Numbered from the stretch's first letter, positions 160 through 27,768 are shown. The stretch: DNA of 36,444 bases from Desulfobacteraceae bacterium (GCA_050122535.1 JASFIT010000002.1:1-36444); one strand, 5' to 3'. The notes: generated from the letters alone by a model not told the origin. Translations and numbers: made by a program.

Positions 160-1170
160 ATGACTTCCAAAGATAAAACATTCGTCCTAGCAGGCGACAT
201 CGGCGGCACCAAGACGAATTTGGGCCTCTTTCAAATGGGTAAAACGAGGCCCAGTCCCAGGAAGATGGAGACCTATTCCAGTAGAGATGCACCTAATTTG
301 GAACACATTATTGGTCGCTTTCTTGAAAAGCATAAGGTCACGATCATAAGTGCATGCTTTGGTGTCGCAGGCCCTGTACAGGGCGGTCGATCCAAGACCA
401 CCAACCTGCCGTGGACTATATCTGAAAATACTATCAAAAAGCGTTTCAAATGGAATCATGTCATTTTGATCAATGACCTGACAGCAACGGCTTACGCGAT
501 TCCCCTGCTGAGTAACAAAGAACTTCACGCTTTGAACAAGGCAAAGGCAAGAAAAGGGCAGAACCTGGGACTCGTTGCCCCAGGCACAGGGCTAGGTATG
601 GCCTTGTTGATTTGGGTGGGGAATAGATATATCCCTGTGGCTTCAGAGGGTGGGCATGCTAATTTTGGGCCAAGTGACTTGATGGAGGCAGAACTGTGGG
701 CATATCTTTATGAACGTTGGGACCATGTGAGTGTGGAAAGGGTTCTTTCGGGATCAGGTTTGTTTAATATCTATTCATGGCTTCGGGATTCGGGTCGCCA
801 CCATGAACCTGGATGGCTGGCCGACAAAATCAAAGCGGCGGATCCTGCAAGGGCAATCAGTGAGGCTGCATTGGATCGAAAGGATCCTCTGTGTGAAGAA
901 GCACTGGACATATTTATATCTATCTTTGGATCTGTCGCTGGAAATCTCGCACTAACAGGAGTGACCACCGGAGGTATCTACCTGGGCGGGGGTATTCCGC
1001 CCAAGATCTTGCGCAAATTGGATGGGGATACCTTTATGCAGGCATTTACGAATAAAGGGAGGCTTAAAGATCTCTTGGAGAAAATACCGGTCCGTGTGAT
1101 TCTCAATGATAGGGCAGCCCTACTAGGCGCAGCACATTGCGCCTTTGAAATCCAAAAAAATCCGATTTAG
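160..1170 (+). CDS. glk: Glucokinase
   Basis: Long ORF with N-terminal VLAGDIGGTKTNLGLF (DxGGT phosphate-binding motif of glucokinase). C-terminal GGIYLGGGIPPKIL is typical of the Glk family. The ATG at 160 has AAGGGG 9 nt upstream; the track start is a TTG at 133. Confidence 0.85.
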   Translation: MTSKDKTFVLAGDIGGTKTNLGLFQMGKTRPSPRKMETYSSRDAPNLEHIIGRFLEKHKVTIISACFGVAGPVQGGRSKTTNLPWTISENTIKKRFKWNHVILINDLTATAYAIPLLSNKELHALNKAKARKGQNLGLVAPGTGLGMALLIWVGNRYIPVASEGGHANFGPSDLMEAELWAYLYERWDHVSVERVLSGSGLFNIYSWLRDSGRHHEPGWLADKIKAADPARAISEAALDRKDPLCEEALDIFISIFGSVAGNLALTGVTTGGIYLGGGIPPKILRKLDGDTFMQAFTNKGRLKDLLEKIPVRVILNDRAALLGAAHCAFEIQKNPI

Positions 1171-1173
1171 TCG

Positions 1174-1845
1174 TTATTCTCCTTTACCGTGAAATGCGCC
1201 ATTGAAATGTTTAATGGCGCGAGCATGCTTTCCTTTATCATCGTGGCATCTGCGACAGGTGAAAAGTACGTTATGTCCGTCTGTTTTGCCTGGCACCTTC
1301 AGCTTCCTCCGCTCTGGATCCTCAGCATGCTTTCTACTAGGTCCATGACACGTCTCACATCCCACATTAATCTCAATGAATCTTTTTGTTTTTGGGTTCA
1401 ACCCTACCGTATGGCAAGGACCGCAACGCAGACGATAATCTTGATTGGTCCACACACTCCTCATTATCCATTTCTGTTTTCTAAGATGATATAGATACGG
1501 GAATACTTTCCAGTTTTTATCTACAAATGCCACTTTGTTTCTGTCCCCGACTATAAGAAAAACATTATCCCCTTTAATTGGACTATTATGCCAATTGCCC
1601 GGAAGCGATTCTGAAGCATCACTCCTGTATCGAACGAAATGGGACATGTGTTTTCCTGACCAATCTTCATATTTTCCTTGATGACAATTTACACATGCAT
1701 TGGAGCCAATGTAATCCTCTATCTGGGCTTCAGCTGTTATTCCTACGTCACGGACTTGTGTGGCACCACTAGATGCTTTTAGAAACAGAAGCGCAAAAGC
1801 TATGCCTGCAACATAAGTAATATTCTTGCTGCCTTGAGATATCAC
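1174..1845 (-). CDS. Secreted tetrahaem c-type cytochrome
   Basis: GTG start with GGAG 6 nt upstream and a hydrophobic N-terminal signal. Four CxxCH motifs: CVNCH, CGPCH, CETCH, CRRCH. Convergent with glk, with only 3 nt between the stop codons. Confidence 0.8.
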   Translation of the reverse strand: MISQGSKNITYVAGIAFALLFLKASSGATQVRDVGITAEAQIEDYIGSNACVNCHQGKYEDWSGKHMSHFVRYRSDASESLPGNWHNSPIKGDNVFLIVGDRNKVAFVDKNWKVFPYLYHLRKQKWIMRSVWTNQDYRLRCGPCHTVGLNPKTKRFIEINVGCETCHGPSRKHAEDPERRKLKVPGKTDGHNVLFTCRRCHDDKGKHARAIKHFNGAFHGKGE

Positions 1846-2040
1846 CTAGTACTCCATGTTGGATTTCTCAGTGTCTGGATTTCATTAAGATTACAGTTCG
1901 TAACACTTAAAGTCGATAAATTCAAGATTACCCATTAGTCTATAGTTTTTGCAAGTAAAGGTGTATGAATTTGAAGAAATAAATAAGGGGTGTTTTAATG
2001 AGTTGCTTATATATCAATGGAGGTCCCCGTTCTCACAAAG

Positions 2041-2073
2041 AAAAAGGCAGAACCGTGATGACCCTGCCTTTTT
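2041..2073 (-). terminator. Rho-independent terminator of the small Arg-rich gene
   Basis: AAAAGGCAG-N13-CTGCCTTTT hairpin. On the minus strand it is followed by TTTTTCTTTG, 23 nt past the stop at 2096. Confidence 0.7.
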
Positions 2074-2095
2074 CATGGAAAGATTATTCGAAGAT

Positions 2096-2311
2096 TTACC
2101 GGGCCGTAATCTTCCAAAGCGACAGATCGCCTATGAACACACTGCTCCACTTCGTCGCTCTAACCCAATCCTTTCTTCGCTCGTTTTGCGACCTTCGCTC
2201 TATCCAACTTCTCCTCTCCACGCCTCCGTTTAAGAAGTAGTCAAGACTATGCGCCTTTCGTCTATCACTTCCTGAGCGTCTATCGATGGGAGATCGCTCC
2301 TTCTTTGGCAT
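2096..2311 (-). CDS. Small basic protein (71 aa) with tandem [DE]RR[SK] hexad repeats; function unknown
   Basis: ATG is preceded by AGGAG 9 nt upstream, and the gene has its own terminator. Sequence contains DRRS-GS-DRRK ... ERRS-WI-ERRS-QN-ERRK. Confidence 0.6.
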   Translation of the reverse strand: MPKKERSPIDRRSGSDRRKAHSLDYFLNGGVERRSWIERRSQNERRKDWVRATKWSSVFIGDLSLWKITAR

Positions 2312-2490
2312 GTTAATAATCTCCTGCCACTCTCTCCGATTTATCGTTATCTAGTATATATAACTATATGTTGTGTGTCAAGTGGTTAGTAATACAGGAT
2401 ATGGTATCCTGGTGGCGTTGCACCCAAGAGGAATTTTTGAAGGATCACATTACTTAACAAGTTAGCTAATAATGCGACCACCACTGTTAA

Positions 2491-3213
2491 TTAGAGGAGG
2501 TATTCCGGCTTTACATTCTGGAGGGCGTGAAAGATGTTTCCTTTGATCTTTTTATTGGTTCTATAGAAATCCCTTAGCATTTTCTTGACATCTTCTCTTT
2601 TTGAAGAGCCCGCTGTGGGGCAACCCAAGTCTATCTTAGGCCATTCCATGGACTTGGCATACCTCCTTATCTTGTCTTCTTCAAGCATGTATAGAGGTCT
2701 TATCGCCGTGACCTTTCCATTAAAGAACTCCTGAACGGGCAGCATGGTGCTTATGGACGCACCATAGAAGATGTTTAAGAAAAATGTTTCAATCAGATCG
2801 TCCTTGTGATGACCAAAGGCGATCTTGTTGCACTCCAATTCACCGGCTATTTGGAAAAGGATCTTTCTTCGGAGGCGAGAGCAGAGGAAGCACGGGTTCT
2901 CCCGGTTTTCTGGTCCGTGCGCCTTCGGACCAATATCGCTTTGCAGAACCCGATACTCAAAACCATGCTCCGAAAAGAAAGATTCCATCTGCCCTGCAGA
3001 GTCAGCACCGAAGCCGGGATCCACATGGACTGCAGTGATCTGGTATTCAATGGGTATTTTTTCTATTCGCTCCCTAAGAAGCCACAAAAGAGACATGCTA
3101 TCCTTTCCACCTGATACGGCCACGAGCACATGATCCCCGTCTTCAATCATCTGCCGGCTGTTTATGGCCTTACCCATCAACCGCTTCATTTCTTTATTTA
3201 CATAATTTGCCAT
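2491..3213 (-). CDS. ttcA: tRNA 2-thiocytidine(32) synthetase TtcA-like PP-loop ATPase
   Basis: SGGKDS PP-loop, NPCFLCSRLRRK CxxC motif and AFGHHKDDLIETFFLN, all typical of the TtcA family. Confidence 0.85.
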   Translation of the reverse strand: MANYVNKEMKRLMGKAINSRQMIEDGDHVLVAVSGGKDSMSLLWLLRERIEKIPIEYQITAVHVDPGFGADSAGQMESFFSEHGFEYRVLQSDIGPKAHGPENRENPCFLCSRLRRKILFQIAGELECNKIAFGHHKDDLIETFFLNIFYGASISTMLPVQEFFNGKVTAIRPLYMLEEDKIRRYAKSMEWPKIDLGCPTAGSSKREDVKKMLRDFYRTNKKIKGNIFHALQNVKPEYLL

Positions 3214-3252
3214 TTGCCACTGGAATTAGCCACAGTCCCAAAGAAAAAGAAG

Positions 3253-3335
3253 TTTAGACAAGATTCTTAATCACGAAAACACAAAAAAGCTCCTAGACAG
3301 GATTTACAGGATCGCCCGGACAAGAAAAGGAGCGG
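3253..3335 (+). repeat. Interspersed intergenic repeat, second copy of the family seen at 1..91
   Basis: TTAATCACGAAAACACAAAAAA (3267..3288) and TAGACAGGATTTACAGGATCGCCCGGACAAGAAAAGGAGCGG (3294..3335) match the reverse complement of the window start. An extra TTTAGACAAGATT half-copy sits at 3253..3265. Confidence 0.6.
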
Positions 3336-3462
3336 TGGGAACCCCAATACCCCGACTCGTAGGGCGGGTATCCCTCAAAAAATTTTTTTGACACGGGTTT
3401 CGCGTAGCGAAACACACGGATTGCACGGATATATCAACACAGGCTGAATGATCGCTCACAAA

Positions 3463-4613: not shown

Positions 4614-5021
4614 TTAGTGCTTGCCAGGATCGAGGGGTACCCCGCGTCTCTCCCATGTAATATAGGCCTCCAGGGCAATCATTTTGGGATCGTCCAGCTC
4701 CATGGGCTCACCCTCCAGGGGATTTTCAATACACCAGTTGATCATATCCCTTAAGGTAGCTACAGAACCTATCTGTTTTTGAAACTTGGGATAGGTTTCT
4801 GGGTGGGTATTGGATGCATTGGGATGGCACATATCACAAGAAACACTATTGGTGCCGAGTGCACTGTGGAAGAGTTTTTCCCCTTGGATAACCACATCCA
4901 TAAAAGCGTCCTGCCATTTTTTGAGATCTTCTTTTTTAAATTCATCGGCTCTCAGGCCCGGGATTAGGCTTGCCGCCAAGATAAATGCTAGACTTACACA
5001 GAGAATGACTTTGTATCTCAT
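4614..5021 (-). CDS. Periplasmic monohaem c-type cytochrome
   Basis: The ATG at 5021 is preceded by AAAGGAGGG 5 nt upstream. Signal peptide MRYKVILCVSLAFILAASL and a single CDMCH motif. LRDMINWCIENPLEG...IALEAYI resembles the SoxA/TsdA-type cytochrome fold; that resemblance is from memory, not searched. Confidence 0.75.
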   Translation of the reverse strand: MRYKVILCVSLAFILAASLIPGLRADEFKKEDLKKWQDAFMDVVIQGEKLFHSALGTNSVSCDMCHPNASNTHPETYPKFQKQIGSVATLRDMINWCIENPLEGEPMELDDPKMIALEAYITWERRGVPLDPGKH

Positions 5022-5051
5022 AAGAACCCTCCTTTGGCCACCCCCACTCAA

Positions 5052-5074
5052 CCCTCCCCCTTCAAGGGGGAGGG
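5052..5074. repeat. Intercistronic hairpin CCCTCCCCC-TTCAA-GGGGGAGGG
   Basis: 9-bp perfect stem between the stop of 5095..6171 and the start of the cytochrome gene. Same C-run/G-run style as 4333..4414. Confidence 0.6.
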
Positions 5075-5094
5075 CAGGGAGGGGGTATTATCTT

Positions 5095-6171
5095 TTAATA
5101 ATGCATTTGCGGTGGTATTCGTTTTGAAGGATCCTGGTACTGTGAATCCATGAAATGCCCAGCCTTTTCGTCGTATGCGATGGTTCTTGATGTGTTTTCC
5201 CATAAATCAAAATGCTGGGATACTCGGCCAGTTTCAAGAGTAACCTGAGACCATCCGGTCGCATCTCTTTCATGAAACGGGTCTGCCCGATTCATAAAGA
5301 CGGTCATCTTGGGTACCATGTTGCGTTTTTGGTTGTAGCTGACCGGATAAGGCCAAGGCCATGCGGTGGACATCCACGCTTGAAAGCTGATGTTTTCGAT
5401 CTGATTATAGAGAATCTGATGGACATGGCCATGCAGAACGGTCACCTTCTTGAATGGCCTTATTAAACTCTGGACCAGCTCCGCATCATCTGTCCAGAAG
5501 TTCCAAGGCTTAAAGACCTTGTAAAGTGGTGAATGAGACAAAACGATGATTGGTGTATCATGGCTCACTTTGGAGAGGTCTGTTTTCAACCAGTTGATCT
5601 GCTCGAGTCCCACCATGAAGGGTGACCCTTGGGGATTGTCGAGTCTGGCCATCTGTAACATCCGCTCTTCGGGGGTGCGCCAGCGTCTAATCCAGTCTTC
5701 ATAGGTGAGAATGCTGTTCAATACGACAAAGTGAACCCCTTTATGATCGAAGCTATAATAAAGCTTGCTCACTTTCTGTTCCCAGTACTTTCCCATATCC
5801 AGATAGAAGTCATGTTCTCCAATGACGAACTTAATAGGGACCTCAATCTTGGAAAGCATTTCCAGTCCGTGATCGATCTCCTCTTTTTTACCAAGCTGAG
5901 CGAGATCCCCGCCGAAGACAATAAAATCAGGTTGAGGCCACATGAGGCCGATCTCAGCGACCGCTTGCTGCAATCCCTTGTCAAAGTTATTCACAAATTT
6001 TGTGCCCTTGATATGGGTGAGATGGGAGTCAGAAATGACGCCAAACGTAAATTTTTCTCCCTCCTTTCCCCAGCAAACGTCAACGAGTTTCAAGGGCAAC
6101 ATGGACGCAGCTGTGAATGTGGCCGTTGCTTTCAAGAAAGACCGTCGTGTCATCGACTTTCCTTTAGACAT
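5095..6171 (-). CDS. Tat-exported calcineurin-like metallophosphoesterase
   Basis: The ATG is preceded by AAAGGAGG 6 nt upstream. Twin-arginine signal MTRRSFLKATATFTAASMLP. Metallophosphoesterase motifs VISDSH, FGGDL, IGEHD, LSHSP and LHGHVH. Confidence 0.8.
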   Translation of the reverse strand: MSKGKSMTRRSFLKATATFTAASMLPLKLVDVCWGKEGEKFTFGVISDSHLTHIKGTKFVNNFDKGLQQAVAEIGLMWPQPDFIVFGGDLAQLGKKEEIDHGLEMLSKIEVPIKFVIGEHDFYLDMGKYWEQKVSKLYYSFDHKGVHFVVLNSILTYEDWIRRWRTPEERMLQMARLDNPQGSPFMVGLEQINWLKTDLSKVSHDTPIIVLSHSPLYKVFKPWNFWTDDAELVQSLIRPFKKVTVLHGHVHQILYNQIENISFQAWMSTAWPWPYPVSYNQKRNMVPKMTVFMNRADPFHERDATGWSQVTLETGRVSQHFDLWENTSRTIAYDEKAGHFMDSQYQDPSKRIPPQMHY

Positions 6172-6210
6172 GATTTACCTCCTTTCTAACTAAGGGTTAA
6201 GCATATCTTA

Positions 6211-7320
6211 TTATTTATTCAAATTCTTGAATTCCGGGCTGGTCAATGCCTTCATAAATTCAATGATGTCTTTAATTTCCTGGTCTGTGAGGTCAAGGAC
6301 TCGAACGCTGCCCAAAAAGGGGTTCTTCTCGCCACCTTTATTATATAGCTCCATCACTTCTTCCAGCGTCTTCATACTCCCGTCATGCATGTAAGGACCC
6401 GTAGCCGCGATGTTCCGTAAGGTAGGTGTTTTGAATGCACCTATATCCGATGTTTTCAAAGTGACGACAAAGCGACCTAATTCAGAGATCTCCGCATCGC
6501 TGAATTTTGATGTATCAGGTTCTCTGCCCTGCTGTTTTGCCATCCTAAATTCTCTGACCATTTCGCGGAGCCGAGGCTGAATTTTCTTAAAGCCTACACC
6601 CAGGTTGTGGAATTTGTTGTCCGTGAAAATGGCATGGTTTTCGCTGATCGCATGGCATTCCTGACAACGGGCTTTTCCCTTATAGAGCTCCAACCCCCTT
6701 ACGGCAGACTCAGAGAGTGCCGTCTTGTCCCCACCATAAGCGTACCGGTCAAAGGGGGAATCACCAGAAATTACCGTTCGTTCGAAACTGGCGATGGCCT
6801 TGACCACATGGTCAATGGTAATCTGTTCCGGCTTAACACCGAATACACGTTTAAATTCCTCCATATACCCTTTATCCTTCCGGATCACGTTGACAATGAA
6901 GTCGTGAAACCCATGTTCTTTGCCAAGCCCGTGTTCCACAGGGTTCAAAAAAGGGTCTTTGGCCTGCTCTTCCAGGCTAAGACGGCGGCCGTCCCAAAAC
7001 TGGCTCGTGTAAAAGGCTGAATTGATTACAGTAGGTGAATTGCGGGTCCCCTTGAGCTTTTTGATCCCCTCTGCCACGGGCAATCCATCAGCAAAGGCCT
7101 TTACCGGATCATGACAATGGGCGCAACTGATGGTCCCATCCGCGCTGAAGCGCTTGTCTACAAACAGCTTTTTCCCCAAGGCAATTTTTTCTGCCGTTTG
7201 AGGATTCTCCTCTGGTATGGGCACGGGAGGCAAACCCAATGGAGGCTTTTCCTGGGACAAAGGACTGCCTGTCCATAAAAGGATTGAAAGACCGGTGCAC
7301 AAAAGAATTATGGTCCTCAT
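6211..7320 (-). CDS. Di-haem cytochrome c peroxidase (CCP/MauG family)
   Basis: Signal peptide and two haem motifs (CAHCH, CQECH). FKTPTLRNIAATGPYMHDGS is typical of bacterial CCP. Only 39 nt upstream of the metallophosphoesterase gene. Confidence 0.85.
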   Translation of the reverse strand: MRTIILLCTGLSILLWTGSPLSQEKPPLGLPPVPIPEENPQTAEKIALGKKLFVDKRFSADGTISCAHCHDPVKAFADGLPVAEGIKKLKGTRNSPTVINSAFYTSQFWDGRRLSLEEQAKDPFLNPVEHGLGKEHGFHDFIVNVIRKDKGYMEEFKRVFGVKPEQITIDHVVKAIASFERTVISGDSPFDRYAYGGDKTALSESAVRGLELYKGKARCQECHAISENHAIFTDNKFHNLGVGFKKIQPRLREMVREFRMAKQQGREPDTSKFSDAEISELGRFVVTLKTSDIGAFKTPTLRNIAATGPYMHDGSMKTLEEVMELYNKGGEKNPFLGSVRVLDLTDQEIKDIIEFMKALTSPEFKNLNK

Positions 7321-7429
7321 TTCACTCCCCCCTTTAAAAGAATTCTGGGACTAAGAGGGCTTTCTGAAGGCTTAAGCAAGCCCAAAACGCTGCGTCCCAT
7401 AAGTAGCAAATATTCTCCGCCTAATTTCC

Positions 7430-7843
7430 TCATGCATTGGAGGCTCGAGCCCTGCACTCTGAACATATGCCATAATATTCCAGCCTGAAGTTTTCCACTT
7501 GGAAGCCAAATCTTTCTTTTACTTCGCTAGCGTGGATGGTCGATCCTTCTTCAAAATCCTGTATCTTGCCGCATGAAGTGCAAATGAGGTTTATGTGAGG
7601 GGCCTGATTGGTTTCGTGGCGATTGTCCATTGCCTGAAAGTCCAAGATCTTAATCAGCCCCATTCGGGCGAGCGTTTCTAAGGTATTGTAGACCGTAGCC
7701 AAGCTCAGTCCAGGGTGATCCTTCTTCGCTTCTTGAAAGACTTGTTGCGCACTGGGGTGGGCGTCAGTATTGGCGAGGAAATTCAATATAGCCTTACGCT
7801 GCCGGGTGAGACGATACCCGGCTGCACGAAGTGCCTTTTCCAT
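7430..7843 (-). CDS. Fur-family metalloregulator (Fur/PerR/Zur type not resolvable)
   Basis: 137 aa with a winged-helix region LSLATVYNTLETLARMGLI. Paired CxxC motifs (CTSCG, CSECR) typical of the Fur-family structural Zn site. Confidence 0.8.
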   Translation of the reverse strand: MEKALRAAGYRLTRQRKAILNFLANTDAHPSAQQVFQEAKKDHPGLSLATVYNTLETLARMGLIKILDFQAMDNRHETNQAPHINLICTSCGKIQDFEEGSTIHASEVKERFGFQVENFRLEYYGICSECRARASNA

Positions 7844-7921: not shown

Positions 7922-8055
7922 AGAGAATTTTTGTGAATTTACCTAGATGGGCGTAGAGGGTGTTTGGAGAGATTAAAGGGGAAGTAGCGGGCCAAGGGTA
8001 GCAGGAAGAACGGATCAAGAGGTTATGTTGATAATTGGGAAAGGGCACAGAAAAA

Positions 8056-8098
8056 GGGCCACCACAACTAAATCAAAAATGTGTGGTGACCCTTTTTT
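8056..8098 (-). terminator. Bidirectional rho-independent terminator downstream of the selenoprotein gene
   Basis: GGGCCACCACA...TGTGGTGACCC stem (10 of 11 bp). It is flanked by AAAAA on one side and TTTTTT on the other, so a U-run follows the hairpin on either strand. Confidence 0.7.
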
Positions 8099-8115
8099 CT
8101 GAATTTATTTTTCTT

Positions 8116-8430
8116 CTAACCACATGATGTCCCACATGAAGGGCCACATGTGCTGAGTTTGGAGGAGATGGAAAACCCAGAACCGAATGCCGAATCGACA
8201 AAATCCACGTTTATGGGTTTGGCCTGATCAAGTAATTCTTTGTCGATCAGGTAAGTGATACCATTATCTTTAATGACTTCGTCGTTTTCGCGTGGCTCAT
8301 CCAGAGCCATTCCCAGGGAGGGCCCGGATCACCCGCCCTCGGAAAGAAAAATCCTTACGTAATGGGTCCCTTCCTTGTCTTTGAAAAATTCTCCGAGCAT
8401 CTCATTCGCTTTCTCTGTAACTTCAAGCAT
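8116..8430 (-). CDS. HesB/IscA-like selenoprotein, 104 aa, with in-frame UGA (Sec) at 8329..8331
   Basis: The track ORF 8116..8310 continues upstream in the same frame through a single TGA to the ATG at 8428..8430. That ATG is preceded by AAAGGAGG (8436..8443) with a 5-nt spacer. Product: MLEVTEKANEMLGEFFKDKEGTHYVRIFLSEGG-U-SGPSLGMALDEPREN...STCGPSCGTSCG. The UGA sits where A-type Fe-S carriers have the conserved GGC(S/A)G cysteine. Confidence 0.8.
8293..8309 (-). other. Candidate bacterial SECIS hairpin
   Basis: mRNA UGGCUC-UGGAU-GAGCCA (6-bp stem, 5-nt loop containing GG) begins 19 nt after the UGA. That is within the usual distance window for bacterial SECIS elements. Not scored with any model. 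Confidence 0.5.
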
Positions 8431-8637
8431 TCTAGCCTCCTTTAGACTCAAGCGCTGGTTTAGCGCAAATTATAGCATAAAAATATACATTAACAATATT
8501 ATGTCAATCCTTTTTCTTTCTAAATATAACTAAAATGAGCATTTTTAAGAAAATTTAAAATAATATAGAAATTCTAGTATACCCAGGCTTCCAAAGGCAT
8601 ATGAAATCGGGAAAAGTCAAACAGGGTGGTACACGTG

Positions 8638-9267
8638 TCAAAAAGGCTCTTCAGATAATCTCTGTCTCAACCATTCCAGGATCTTGTCAAATTCTCCCTG
8701 GAGTTGGGCCATGGCCTTTCCCCTGTGGCTGACCCGATTCTTTTCTTCAAGGGATAGCTGGGCAAAGGTCCTTTTCAGCGGGGGGTAGTAAAACACGGGA
8801 TCATAGCCAAAACCATGATCGCCTTTCATTTCATTCGTTATCTCTCCATCGCATAGCCCCTCATAGGTGAGGGCAGGCCCGCTTGGCACGGCAATGATGA
8901 TGACGCATTTAAAGGTGGCCTTTCTGTTTATCAGGCCTTTCATTGCCTCTAACAGTTTCAGATTGTTCTCTTTATCAGAGGCTTTTGCCCCCGCATAACG
9001 GGCCGAATGGACACCAGGCCTTCCACCCAATGCATCCACCATAAGGCCGGAATCGTCCGCGAGCACAGGAAACCCGAGCATCTTCGCCGTAAGATGGGCC
9101 TTTTTGTAGGCGTTTTCCTCAAAGGTCTCTCCATCCTCTTCTATTGGAGATATGGGGCCAAAATCTTGTAAGCTCTTTATTTCAATATGGAAATCTGAAA
9201 GAAGTTCTTTGAATTCCCTTATCTTGCCCTGGTTTCGGGTGGCCAGAACCAGTGGTTTTTCAAGCAT
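8638..9267 (-). CDS. rdgB: dITP/XTP pyrophosphatase (RdgB/HAM1 family)
   Basis: LVLATRNQGKIREF N-terminus plus FGYDPVF and SHRGKA motifs. I prefer the ATG at 9267; the track start is a TTG at 9312. Confidence 0.9.
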   Translation of the reverse strand: MLEKPLVLATRNQGKIREFKELLSDFHIEIKSLQDFGPISPIEEDGETFEENAYKKAHLTAKMLGFPVLADDSGLMVDALGGRPGVHSARYAGAKASDKENNLKLLEAMKGLINRKATFKCVIIIAVPSGPALTYEGLCDGEITNEMKGDHGFGYDPVFYYPPLKRTFAQLSLEEKNRVSHRGKAMAQLQGEFDKILEWLRQRLSEEPF

Positions 9268-9357
9268 GGATGATGATCCTTTCTGACTACTATCAGATCT
9301 CTGAAAAGGCAAGGCGTGAACTGGAGCATTAGCATAGGAGGGAGATCATTGCAATAT

Positions 9358-24575: not shown

Positions 24576-25016
24576 ATGGCTGATATCAAAGGCTACAACA
24601 TGCCAGATGAACTCTATTACCACGAGGAACATAGCTGGGCGCGAGTGGACGGCACAAAAGTGACCGTTGGAATGACGGATTTTTTCCAAAAGGAGGCAGG
24701 CGATATCGTATTTGTGGATCTTCCCGATGAAGAAGACGAAGTGAGTCAGGGCGAAGTCTGCGGGAAAATCCAGTCAAGGAAATGGATCGGCAACCTCGTC
24801 GCCCCTGTCTCCGGTGAGATCGTGGAGCTGAACGAGGAACTGGAAGAGGATACCAGTCTTATAAACACAGATCCCTATGGTGGGGGCTGGATAATTGTCA
24901 TCGAGGCGAGCGATCTGGAAGCAGACTTGGGGAATCTGATCCAAGGGGACGCTGTTGCGGATTTTGTGGAGAAAGAGATCAAGAAGGCCGAGGAGGAGAA
25001 GGCCAAGGCTGAATAA
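24576..25016 (+). CDS. gcvH: GcvH-family lipoyl-carrier protein (glycine-cleavage H protein or LbpA-like)
   Basis: HSWARVDG...VGMTDFFQKEAGDIVFVDLP and IQSRKWIGNLVAPVSGEIVELN. K69 aligns with the lipoyl-lysine of canonical VESVKAASDIYAPVSG. Strong SD AAGGAGGAGG. Confidence 0.85.
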   Translation: MADIKGYNMPDELYYHEEHSWARVDGTKVTVGMTDFFQKEAGDIVFVDLPDEEDEVSQGEVCGKIQSRKWIGNLVAPVSGEIVELNEELEEDTSLINTDPYGGGWIIVIEASDLEADLGNLIQGDAVADFVEKEIKKAEEEKAKAE

Positions 25017-25018
25017 AG

Positions 25019-26086
25019 ATGGCAGAACGTTGGCGTCTTTTCAAAAATATATCAAGAGCTGTTTCCACTGCCGAAGGACTGGCTCTGGACGACACCCTAC
25101 CGCAATCTGTGGCTCATCATCAATCCCCGCCAATACTCCACCTTTACACATTCGTCCCATCCGTCATTGTGGGTAAATACCAGGATATTGAGGCGGCCCT
25201 GAGGCTTGATAGATGCAGGGCAAGGGGGATTGAATACAACCGGAGGAGCACGGGCGGTGGCACGGTCATAATGGGGCCCGAGATCGTCGCATTGGGCCTG
25301 GGGATCAACGTGGATTATCCTGGACTCAAAGGGGGATTAGGAGGGGTCTTCGAACCCCTGGCCCATGTTTTGTGTAAGGCCTTAGAGGGATTTGGCATTC
25401 AATCCTATTTTCAGCCCAAAAATGACCTGGAAGCTGCTGGGAAGAAGATAGCAGGGTTGTCCGCAGCCTATGAGACAGGGAGGAGTTTGCTCTTTCACAC
25501 CAGTCTGCTCGTGGACTTCGACGTCCCGCTGATGACAGATATCATGAATACTCCCTTAATCAAGCTCAGTGACAAGGGGTACAACTGTTTCAGCCAGCGA
25601 ATGACCACTGTCTGCCAAGAAGTTGGAGAAGATGTCCCTGTAAAGCGAGTGGTGGATGCCATCGAGATATCCTTTGAAAAAGAATTCGGAATCGTTTTCC
25701 AGAAAGACGAACCAGATGACTGGGAAAGAGAGGTTATTCAGCGCTACAGCAGGGAGAGGTACACCAACCAGGCATGGATCTTTTCCCATAAGCATCCAAG
25801 AGCCAGGATGGGATTGGGCAGGCTTAAGACCAGGGGAGGACTTTTGGAGATCTACCTTGCCTTGTCAGGCGGATCCATTGAGAATGTGATTATCACTGGG
25901 GATTTCTTTTCCACCAGTGAGGATATCAACCGCCTTGAGAAGGCGCTGAAATGGACTTCAGCACGAGAGGAAAGCATAGGAGAAAATCTTTCAAGGGTAT
26001 GGAAGGATGACATGATTTATGGCCTCGACGTCCCTTCTCTAACCAAGGCTATTATTAAGGCTAAAGAAAACCAAGTTAGGTTATAA
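25019..26086 (+). CDS. Lipoate-protein ligase (LplA-type, catalytic plus C-terminal accessory domain fused)
   Basis: 355 aa. LHLYTFVPSVIVGKYQ, RRSTGGGTV and GKKIAGLSA (conserved catalytic Lys region of the BPL/LplA/LipB fold). Starts 2 nt after the gcvH-like stop. Confidence 0.8.
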   Translation: MAERWRLFKNISRAVSTAEGLALDDTLPQSVAHHQSPPILHLYTFVPSVIVGKYQDIEAALRLDRCRARGIEYNRRSTGGGTVIMGPEIVALGLGINVDYPGLKGGLGGVFEPLAHVLCKALEGFGIQSYFQPKNDLEAAGKKIAGLSAAYETGRSLLFHTSLLVDFDVPLMTDIMNTPLIKLSDKGYNCFSQRMTTVCQEVGEDVPVKRVVDAIEISFEKEFGIVFQKDEPDDWEREVIQRYSRERYTNQAWIFSHKHPRARMGLGRLKTRGGLLEIYLALSGGSIENVIITGDFFSTSEDINRLEKALKWTSAREESIGENLSRVWKDDMIYGLDVPSLTKAIIKAKENQVRL

Positions 26087-26204
26087 CATTTTGGATTTTG
26101 GATTTTAGATTTTGAAAAGCTGTCTTGTACCCTCCAGGACCGTTTGGCTGGAGTTAAGAATATAAAGACCTTTGCTAATAATGCGCCAAAGGTACTTGGC
26201 ATCC

Positions 26205-26233
26205 TTTTGTCCGGCCAGGTCGGCCGGACAAAA
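26205..26233 (+). other. Perfect 12-bp intercistronic hairpin TTTTGTCCGGCC-AGGTC-GGCCGGACAAAA
   Basis: Lies between the ligase gene and the radical-SAM gene. No U-run follows, so it is more likely an mRNA processing/stability element or a repeat than a terminator. Confidence 0.6.
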
Positions 26234-26270
26234 TGTCTGCGTAGGTCTGCGGCTAACAAGACCGAGAAAA

Positions 26271-27311
26271 ATGTCAAACGAAATTCAAAGCCCTGAATAT
26301 GTGAAAATGAGCCATGCCACGGCCATCTCTCTCGGGTTGATGGAGGGGAGGATGTATCGCGGCGCGGTGAACCGATGCGTGAACCTGCTGTATCATTACC
26401 CTGAAGGGTGTTCTGCTAATTGTGCTTATTGTGGCCTGGCCAAGAGGCGTCCCGGAACCTATGAAGAAAAGAGCTTCATTCATGTGGATTGGCCCATATA
26501 CCCGATGGATGAAGTCATTGATGCCATCAACAAGGCCCCTCCATACGTTAAACGTACCTGTATCTCCATGATCACCAACGGCAAGTGCCGCCAGGACACT
26601 CTGGTGTTGGCGCATCGGCTGAAAAATGAAACCGCCATTCCCGTTTCCGTCCTTATCAGCCCCACCATACTAGAGAAGGAAGATTTGGTCGCCATGAAGG
26701 AGGCGGGCGTTGATAAGGTGGGTGTGGCCATAGACCTGGCCACACCAGAGCTCTTTGACAGGTACCGGGGAGCTGGTGTTTCAGGACCCCACAGATGGCA
26801 GAAATACTGGGAAATTCTGACGGCAGGCCTTGACGTTTTTGGGAAGCTCCATGTTGGCGCCCATCTCATGGTGGGTCTGGGTGAGACGGAAAAGGAGATG
26901 GTCTCCTTGATGGAGAGAATGTGGCAGATGGGTGTTGTGAATCACCTGTTTTCATTCTTTGCAGAGGAAAGTTCCGGCCTGGCCGCCCGACCCCAGCCCC
27001 CTTGGCCCAATTACTTGCGGATACAGTTGGCCCGGTATCTGATCGAGCATGAACGGTGTTGTTTTGATGATATGAAATTTGACGGGCCCGGACGCATCAT
27101 TGATTTTGGGCTTGCCCCGGATACATTAAACCAAGTCATAAACGTTGGCGCACCCTTCATGACCACAGGTTGTCTGGGACCAGATGGAAAAGTGGCCTGC
27201 AACCGCCCCTTTGCTAATTGCCTGCCTGATGTGAAGCAGTGGAACTATCCCTACACGCCCAATGCTGAGGAGCTCACCCTCATCCACGAGAATATCTTTA
27301 AAATGGGATAG
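26271..27311 (+). CDS. Radical SAM protein, biotin-synthase-related / LipS-like (not LipA)
   Basis: GCSANCAYCG (Cx3Cx2C) near the N-terminus. C-terminal Cys triad CLGPDGKVACNRPFANC. I saw no N-terminal Cx4Cx5C and no RSSY tail. I prefer the ATG at 26271, because the TTG at 26172 would translate through the hairpin. Confidence 0.75.
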   Translation: MSNEIQSPEYVKMSHATAISLGLMEGRMYRGAVNRCVNLLYHYPEGCSANCAYCGLAKRRPGTYEEKSFIHVDWPIYPMDEVIDAINKAPPYVKRTCISMITNGKCRQDTLVLAHRLKNETAIPVSVLISPTILEKEDLVAMKEAGVDKVGVAIDLATPELFDRYRGAGVSGPHRWQKYWEILTAGLDVFGKLHVGAHLMVGLGETEKEMVSLMERMWQMGVVNHLFSFFAEESSGLAARPQPPWPNYLRIQLARYLIEHERCCFDDMKFDGPGRIIDFGLAPDTLNQVINVGAPFMTTGCLGPDGKVACNRPFANCLPDVKQWNYPYTPNAEELTLIHENIFKMG

Positions 27312-27369: not shown

Positions 27370-27446
27370 GGGCCGTTAGCTCAGTTAGGCAGAGCAGCGG
27401 ACTTTTAATCCGTTGGTCACAGGTTCGATTCCTGTACGGCCCACCA
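27370..27446 (+). tRNA. tRNA-Lys (anticodon UUU), CCA encoded
   Basis: Cloverleaf folded by hand. Acceptor GGGCCGT/ACGGCCC, anticodon arm GCGGA-CTTTTAA-TCCGT, T arm ACAGG-TTCGATT-CCTGT, discriminator A, then CCA. Confidence 0.95.
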
Positions 27447-27690
27447 ATTATCTTCTATGACATTTCGATACAGGGAACGAAGAGATACTGGATGAATTGA
27501 ATATATCTTATTTATATAGTGCCCAGTATCTAGCATCCAGAATCGCTCCGCCTGAGCCAGTCAGATATTTTGTTAGAAGAATCGCTGGTTCACCACGGGG
27601 CTACATTAGGAAACAAGCTTTGGACCCTCTCTGGGGTGAACACCTCGGCGGTGGCCATCACTTTGCTATCAAGCCTGTTGTTTGGATAGC

Positions 27691-27768
27691 GTCCCCATCG
27701 TCTAGCCAGGTCCAGGACACCGGCCTTTCACGCCGGCAACACCGGTTCAAATCCGGTTGGGGACGCCA
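27691..27768 (+). tRNA. tRNA-Glu (anticodon UUC), CCA encoded
   Basis: GTCCCCATCGTCTAG...CCGGCCTTTCACGCCGG...CCGGTTCAAATCCGGTTGGGGACGCCA. Near-identical in architecture to E. coli tRNA-Glu as I recall it. Confidence 0.95.

Follow-up and report, generated by a model that had tools for sequence, protein, structure and literature searches.

A probable selenocysteine codon in an unannotated IscA/HesB-family gene (NF038090) of a Desulfobacteraceae bacterium

The locus and its surroundings

The window analysed here, i.e. the whole stretch of DNA considered, comprises 36,444 nt from a Desulfobacteraceae bacterium (GCA_050122535.1 JASFIT010000002.1:1-36444). Its minus strand carries a small gene whose reading frame contains one TGA codon. 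The gene and its control elements are laid out as follows:

8116..8430, minus strand: coding sequence of a predicted IscA/HesB-family selenoprotein, 104 codons plus TAG, with selenocysteine (Sec) at codon 34 (from translation, NF038090 and PF01521)
8329..8331, minus strand: in-frame UGA, read as U34 in the motif G-G-U-S-G-P (from the homologue column and the alignment with IscA structures)
8436..8443, minus strand: Shine-Dalgarno sequence AAAGGAGG, with a 5-nt spacer to the ATG 8430..8428 (read from the sequence)
8469..8507, minus strand: promoter-like TTGACA-16-TATTTT overlapping TTGTTA-16-(TG)TATAAT with an extended -10 (consensus scan)
8048..8101, minus strand: intrinsic-terminator hairpin with a 5' A-run and a 3' U-run, bidirectional in form (direct fold)

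In the minus-strand frame from 8430 to 8116, the TGA at 8331..8329 is the sole internal stop, and the frame ends with the TAG at 8118..8116. A first, sequence-only reading of this DNA had proposed a continuous frame with one TGA and a product of 104 residues. Translation confirmed this proposal, and all the coordinates given at that time were correct. The ATG at 8430..8428 and its strong Shine-Dalgarno sequence, placed 5 nt ahead as had been described, are read directly from the DNA; AAAGGAGG is identical in the closest genome, that of a Desulfobacteraceae MAG (L005) whose neighbour proteins are 88-96% identical to those of the window. Mechanical ORF finders report a 64-aa ORF that starts at the internal ATG 8310..8308 (Met41). 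No Shine-Dalgarno sequence comparable to that of the first ATG precedes this internal ATG, where the upstream context is CCCUCCCUGGGA. The C-x3-C-x3-C tail that had caught attention in the sequence-only reading is present (C95-x3-C99-x3-C103, CGPSCGTSCG) and takes the place of the canonical A-type C-G-C tail.

The consensus scan that gave the promoter-like element did not return more hits than expected from shuffled sequence. A block that takes in the -35, the -10 and part of the 5' UTR is 100% identical in the window (8455..8510) and L005 (2930..2985), whereas the intergenic DNA around this block has diverged to about 85-90% identity. Between and around the promoter hexamers lies an AT-rich ACATAATATTGTTAATGTAT which, judged by eye, might be a Fur-type operator. 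On the other side of the gene, the bidirectional terminator that had been suggested is real. Its G+C-rich core (8092..8056) is extended by A and U stretches to 8101..8048, and direct folding gave -28.3 kcal/mol (z = -4.65), a stability that none of 200 shuffles reached. A simple terminator scan found nothing there because the loop of the hairpin is longer than 8 nt.

The upstream neighbour, at 8638..9312 on the minus strand, encodes a Ham1/RdgB-type non-canonical NTP pyrophosphatase and recurs in ten non-identical genomes (L005, L008, L011, L013-L019). The synteny is conserved, and no evident function connects such an enzyme to an Fe-S carrier. Downstream, a Fur-family regulator is encoded at 7430..7843 on the minus strand, followed by a di-haem cytochrome c peroxidase, a calcineurin-like metallophosphoesterase and a SoxA/TsdA-type cytochrome c. 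Together, these minus-strand genes (4614..7843) resemble a peroxide-stress cluster of the PerR type. Only the closest relatives (L001-L003, L005) also have the Fur and peroxidase genes linked to the selenoprotein gene. Elsewhere in the window, the plus strand carries a row of genes (24576..27311) for glycine-cleavage H protein, lipoate-protein ligase and a radical-SAM protein, which may form a lipoylation module; tRNA-Lys(UUU) and tRNA-Glu(UUC) follow at 27370..27768. None of these genes bears on the selenoprotein.

Family membership and the Sec/Cys column

For scoring with HMMs, U was replaced by C in the 104-aa product. The NF038090 model (IscA_HesB_Se) gave 124.1 bits against a cutoff of 85 (E = 2.4e-36), with residues 1-101 aligned on positions 1-101 of the 101 in the model, and Pfam PF01521 gave 33.7 bits against a gathering threshold of 26.3. 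The sequence-only reading had named TIGR01911 as a model of HesB-like selenoproteins. This model is indeed HesB_rel_seleno, but the window protein remains below its cutoff (58.9 versus 66.35 bits) and passes NF038090 instead. The homologues tested on TIGR01911 obtained 30-51 bits. TIGR00049 was not passed by the window protein (56.5 versus 58.8 bits), and its scores with the IscA, SufA and ErpA equivalog models were all far below cutoff. NF038090 is also passed by the Sec forms of Desulfovibrio and Smithella and by the Cys and CC forms that were tested. We read the link of NF038090 to selenium from the name of the model and from the homologues examined here, a Sec/Cys subfamily found in Desulfobacterota; a literature search for NF038090 returned nothing.

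In E. coli IscA the ligand cysteines are Cys35, Cys99 and Cys101, which follow the A-type pattern C-x(n)-C-G-C. The window protein matches the solved structures of HI1723 (2APN), Aq_1857 (1NWB) and E. coli IscA (1R94, 1S98) with E values from 4e-8 to 5e-5. In these alignments U34 coincides with the GGCSG cysteine of the IscA structures, the first of the three ligand cysteines, which bears out the earlier placement of the UGA at the GGC(S/A)G cysteine of A-type carriers. The stretch U34-S-G-P also fits the UxGP Sec motif of HesB-like selenoproteins. Across the family C99 is invariant, and one further Cys column of the tail is nearly so. HesB-like proteins have figured among the bacterial selenoprotein families since the mid-2000s. 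A survey of 2006 found 11 of them, among which were those of Syntrophus aciditrophicus, Desulfovibrio vulgaris and Geobacter sulfurreducens (PMC1794560), and the family, with UxGP as its motif, still appears in a 2026 review (Table 1, PMC13188914). The window gene is an unannotated member of an already known and already modelled selenoprotein family.

A protein search returned 305 homologues, and the best 120 of these 305 were classed by their form at the TGA column. This form is W in 55 of the 120, C in 30 and CC in 16; another 15 are 64-65-aa forms that start at the same MALDEP Met, and 4 could not be classed by motif. The genes themselves were also read as DNA. A scan of species-representative genomes provided 69 loci from Desulfobacteraceae, Desulfatiglandales, Syntrophorhabdaceae, Smithellaceae/Syntrophaceae and Desulfovibrio MAGs, to which the DNA set adds a few metagenome contigs. 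Among 71 distinct homologous genes, the column is TGA in 62, TGT in 9 and TGG in none. As the sequence-only reading required, the 33 residues upstream of the TGA are conserved and the homologues, whether of the TGA or of the TGT form, run past this position. The corresponding 33 codons are under purifying selection at the protein level, synonymous change being free: Arg26 is invariant in 59/59 genes and is encoded by six different codons, and the invariant Ala8 by four.

Two kinds of variants deserve mention. In the CC subgroup (GGCCSGP), an extra Cys is inserted beside the ligand position. In a Desulfatiglandales genome (L014, on the 6.5-Mb CAXXPR010000002.1), a Cys paralogue with TGT (~2440..2760) stands in tandem just upstream of a Sec form (3001..3312), both downstream of the Ham1 gene. 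The hairpin described below is destroyed in this Cys paralogue. Such a pair may correspond to Sec/Cys isogenes like those methanogens use under selenium limitation.

The hairpin downstream of the UGA

A SECIS candidate had been noted in the DNA that follows the UGA. The RNA elements considered in this region are listed below:

8293..8309, minus strand: SECIS hairpin UGGCUC-UGGAU-GAGCCA, starting 19 nt after the UGA (from fold and conservation)
8308..8304 with 8298..8294, minus strand: conserved 5-bp stem GGCUC/GAGCC, pairing in 59/59 genes
8303..8299, minus strand: hairpin loop UGGAU, 5 nt
8312..8322, minus strand: possible accessory mini-helix CCC (8322..8320)/GGG (8314..8312), between the UGA and the SECIS hairpin (RNAalifold)

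The conserved form of the hairpin is GGCUC-UGGAY-GAGCC; it begins 20 nt downstream of the UGA, within the M-A-L-D-E-P codons. When the U of the UGA is taken as 0, the stem joins +23..+27 with +33..+37 and the loop UGGAY occupies +28..+32. The published model of bacterial SECIS (bSECIS) elements sets 3-9 nt for the loop, 4-16 bp for the stem, 16-37 nt for the distance from UGA to loop, and a minimum free energy (MFE) of -7.5 kcal/mol or below; it also asks for a G among the first two bases of the loop, most often with G or U as the next base (PMC13188914). The window hairpin falls within all of these limits, with a 5-nt loop opening with U-G-G (G-G at positions 2-3), a stem of 5-6 bp, a distance of 25 nt and a fold of -9.2 kcal/mol. 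The stem is short, and its conserved 5-bp core, at -7.6 kcal/mol, is right at the -7.5 threshold.

Pairing and codon entropy were analysed in 59 distinct TGA forms. Of the six base pairs of the original SECIS candidate, five pair in 59/59 genes, with one compensatory change from C-G to U-A (L017, where Ala is also changed to Val) and one G.U pair (L051). The sixth and outer pair, U-A at 8309/8293, was rejected as a conserved element, since it forms in only 29/59 homologues. The conservation of the hairpin is partly due to the conserved MALDEP peptide, and the analysis of synonymous sites separates the constraint on the RNA from that on the protein. Among 40 conserved degenerate codon columns, only Ala42 (GCU in 58/58), Leu43 (CUG in 59/59) and Glu45 (GAG in 58/59) have a codon entropy of about zero. 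All three are within the hairpin, and the G of the loop at +29 is one of these frozen synonymous sites. In the other 37 columns the entropy is never below 0.57 bits, with 0.85-2.4 bits at four- to six-fold degenerate sites outside the hairpin.

The comparison of Sec with Cys forms points in the same direction. The exact 15-mer GGCUCUGGAYGAGCC is present in 60/62 Sec forms, the two exceptions keeping the pairing, versus 1/9 Cys forms (Fisher p = 3.7e-8, not corrected for ancestry). It is found at the same distance in genes of Desulfovibrio and Humidesulfovibrio, the proteins of which are only ~43% identical. These sequence comparisons show that the hairpin is under nucleotide-level selection only in the TGA forms. 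In an uncultured delta proteobacterium (MFD01476.bin.1.1, L025 3096..), a TGT form with an intact GGCUCUGGACGAGCC hairpin seems to have arisen by recent conversion of Sec to Cys, its SECIS persisting as a fossil. Fossil elements of this kind have been described for the HesB-like family (PMC1794560).

Other structures were considered for this region. The MFE fold of the single sequence places the UGA in the loop of a long helix; this helix was discarded, most of its pairs holding in only 13-39 of the 59 homologues. Pairs with high mutual information upstream of the UGA were also set aside as structure, as they are due to a one-codon indel between clades. A search of 8050..8500 against Rfam with E values up to 10 gave no SECIS or other credible family, only chance matches to miRNA and snoRNA.

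The mini-helix listed above contains the strongest covarying pair downstream of the UGA, +11/+17, found at the same positions in L005-L068 as CG (50), GU (4), AU (3), UG (1) or UU (1). Both are largely synonymous sites, at the third position of a Pro codon (+11) and of a Leu/Ile codon (+17), and the changes trace back to only about 3-4 independent lineages. It is uncertain whether this mini-helix is an accessory part of the recoding signal or mere phylogeny. The recoding signal may be bipartite, with the invariant 15-nt hairpin preceded by a covarying 3-bp helix, and could then represent a distinct bSECIS subclass. If this were true, the RNA requirement would also freeze the MALDEP peptide motif.

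Reading of the UGA and comparison with known systems

Chance does not explain this arrangement: TGA at this column, the hairpin and the 33 codons ahead of the TGA are found again in 62 distinct homologous genes. If the TGA were a genuine stop, the locus would hold a pseudogene or a split gene, giving a 33-residue peptide and/or a 64-residue product from the ATG at 8310. The short proteins of 64-65 aa that form 15 of the best 120 homologues in public gene calls, some of them named HesB/IscA, would agree with such a stop, and TGA is an ordinary stop in the window genome, where it ends 8 of 31 genes. However, TGA occupies the same column in genes of several orders with both halves under purifying selection, and neither half alone, on either side of the TGA, is a PF01521 domain. 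The internal ATG lacks a Shine-Dalgarno sequence, and the synonymous sites of the hairpin are frozen only when the codon is TGA. A genuine stop thus appears very improbable.

The UGA could also be decoded as something other than Sec, i.e. as Trp or Gly under genetic code 4 or 25, or as Trp or Cys by near-cognate read-through. The W recorded in 55 of the best 120 database homologues could be taken in this sense. For one of these W proteins (P0001, contig L074), the DNA has TGA and the database entry is reproduced only under code 4. The W residues at the Sec column are artefacts of code-4 gene calling of TGA on short contigs, as verified for P0001. When the entire window was searched for further in-frame TGAs with open frame on both sides, only gene junctions and out-of-frame noise came up, with no second selenoprotein candidate; this result and the 8 of 31 window genes ending in TGA exclude a reassigned genetic code. 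Cys codons are the only alternative at the column, TGG being absent, and the UGA is followed by a conserved structure that fits bSECIS. Furthermore, these lineages are known as rich in selenoproteins, as reported for related Deltaproteobacteria (PMC1794560). What such a decoding also has on its side is that Sec machinery was not observed in the 36-kb window: Pfam annotation of the 30 other window genes gave no selA, selB or selD, and ARAGORN found only tRNA-Lys and tRNA-Glu in the window, with no tRNA-Sec. It is expected that 36 kb of a multi-megabase genome would contain none of these genes. Decoding of the UGA as another amino acid is in our view highly unlikely. An assembly or sequencing error at a TGY Cys codon, restricted to this window, would need a single base change from TGT or TGC, but it can practically be dismissed as the window gene with its TGA is identical on four independent metagenome contigs and TGA is found in 58 other distinct genes.

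The locus is best explained as a monocistronic gene whose 104-residue product is an A-type (IscA/HesB-like) protein of NF038090, and we estimate the probability that it truly encodes Sec at about 0.92. In bacteria, Sec is inserted by means of SelA, SelB, SelC and SelD together with an in-ORF SECIS. Given this established pathway, translation would start at the ATG 8430 and the hairpin GGCUC-UGGAU-GAGCC, located 20 nt past the UGA at 8331..8329, would recruit SelB with Sec-tRNA(Sec). Sec would be inserted at codon 34 in place of chain release, and the ribosome would read on to the TAG at 8118..8116. By homology with A-type carriers we infer a role as Fe-S carrier: binding or transfer of iron or of an Fe-S cluster, by Sec34 together with C99 and C103, is the most likely activity of the mature protein. 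A CC-form gene of the family (L075, JGI 3300012931, Ga0153915_10000699, 402..3348), in which the SECIS-like hairpin is degraded, is the divergent neighbour of sufC and sufBD, and this adjacency supports a role of the family in Fe-S assembly. The selenolate may be a true ligand of Fe or of an Fe-S cluster, which would make the protein a selenium-ligated A-type carrier. In this organism, the neighbouring Fur regulator and di-haem cytochrome c peroxidase could possibly link such a protein to peroxide or iron stress. Taken jointly, a selenolate ligand and a bipartite recoding signal are a rather doubtful proposal. For the HesB-like selenoprotein of Methanococcus maripaludis, confirmed by 75Se labelling, nitrogen fixation was unimpaired in a disruption mutant and the authors call the function not clear (PMC11097638).

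The window gene does not represent a new kind of biology, HesB-like selenoproteins having been described some two decades ago. Its value lies first in annotation, the selenoprotein being widely mis-recorded in Desulfobacterota MAGs (15 short and 55 Trp entries in the best 120 homologues). With the 15-nt signature, placed 20 nt past the UGA, such genes can be found and corrected. The gene would also mark its host as a user of selenocysteine, and the 62 UGA forms versus 9 Cys forms constitute a clean natural experiment on the constraint exerted by a SECIS.

The window protein shares with the NF038090 family the Sec/Cys column, the core G-G-U/C-S-G-P-S-L-G-M-A-L-D-E-P and a Cys-rich C-terminus. 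Most members of this family end with C-x3-C-x-C or C-x2-C-x2-C, in contrast to the subclade of the window with its C-G-P-S-C-G-T-S-C-G, and the C-x3-C-x3-C spacing is a subclade variant of a generally Cys-rich tail. With the HesB-like selenoproteins of TIGR01911 it has in common the fold family, the position of Sec (UxGP) and the alternation of Sec with Cys; as its score is below the TIGR01911 cutoff, the two are sister models by curated thresholds. Archaeal HesB-like selenoproteins use a SECIS located in the 3'-UTR, whereas the window gene has an in-ORF hairpin. The homology with IscA, SufA and ErpA is significant: their first ligand Cys aligns with U34, and C-terminal cysteines are present in the window protein. 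It differs from them by Sec in place of this first Cys and by C-x3-C-x3-C in place of the C-G-C tail. Finally, the in-ORF hairpin just downstream of the UGA follows the bSECIS model (bSECISearch; E. coli fdhF). Compared with that of E. coli fdhF, its stem is much shorter and has no apparent bulged U, and an extra 3-bp helix is possibly present before the hairpin.
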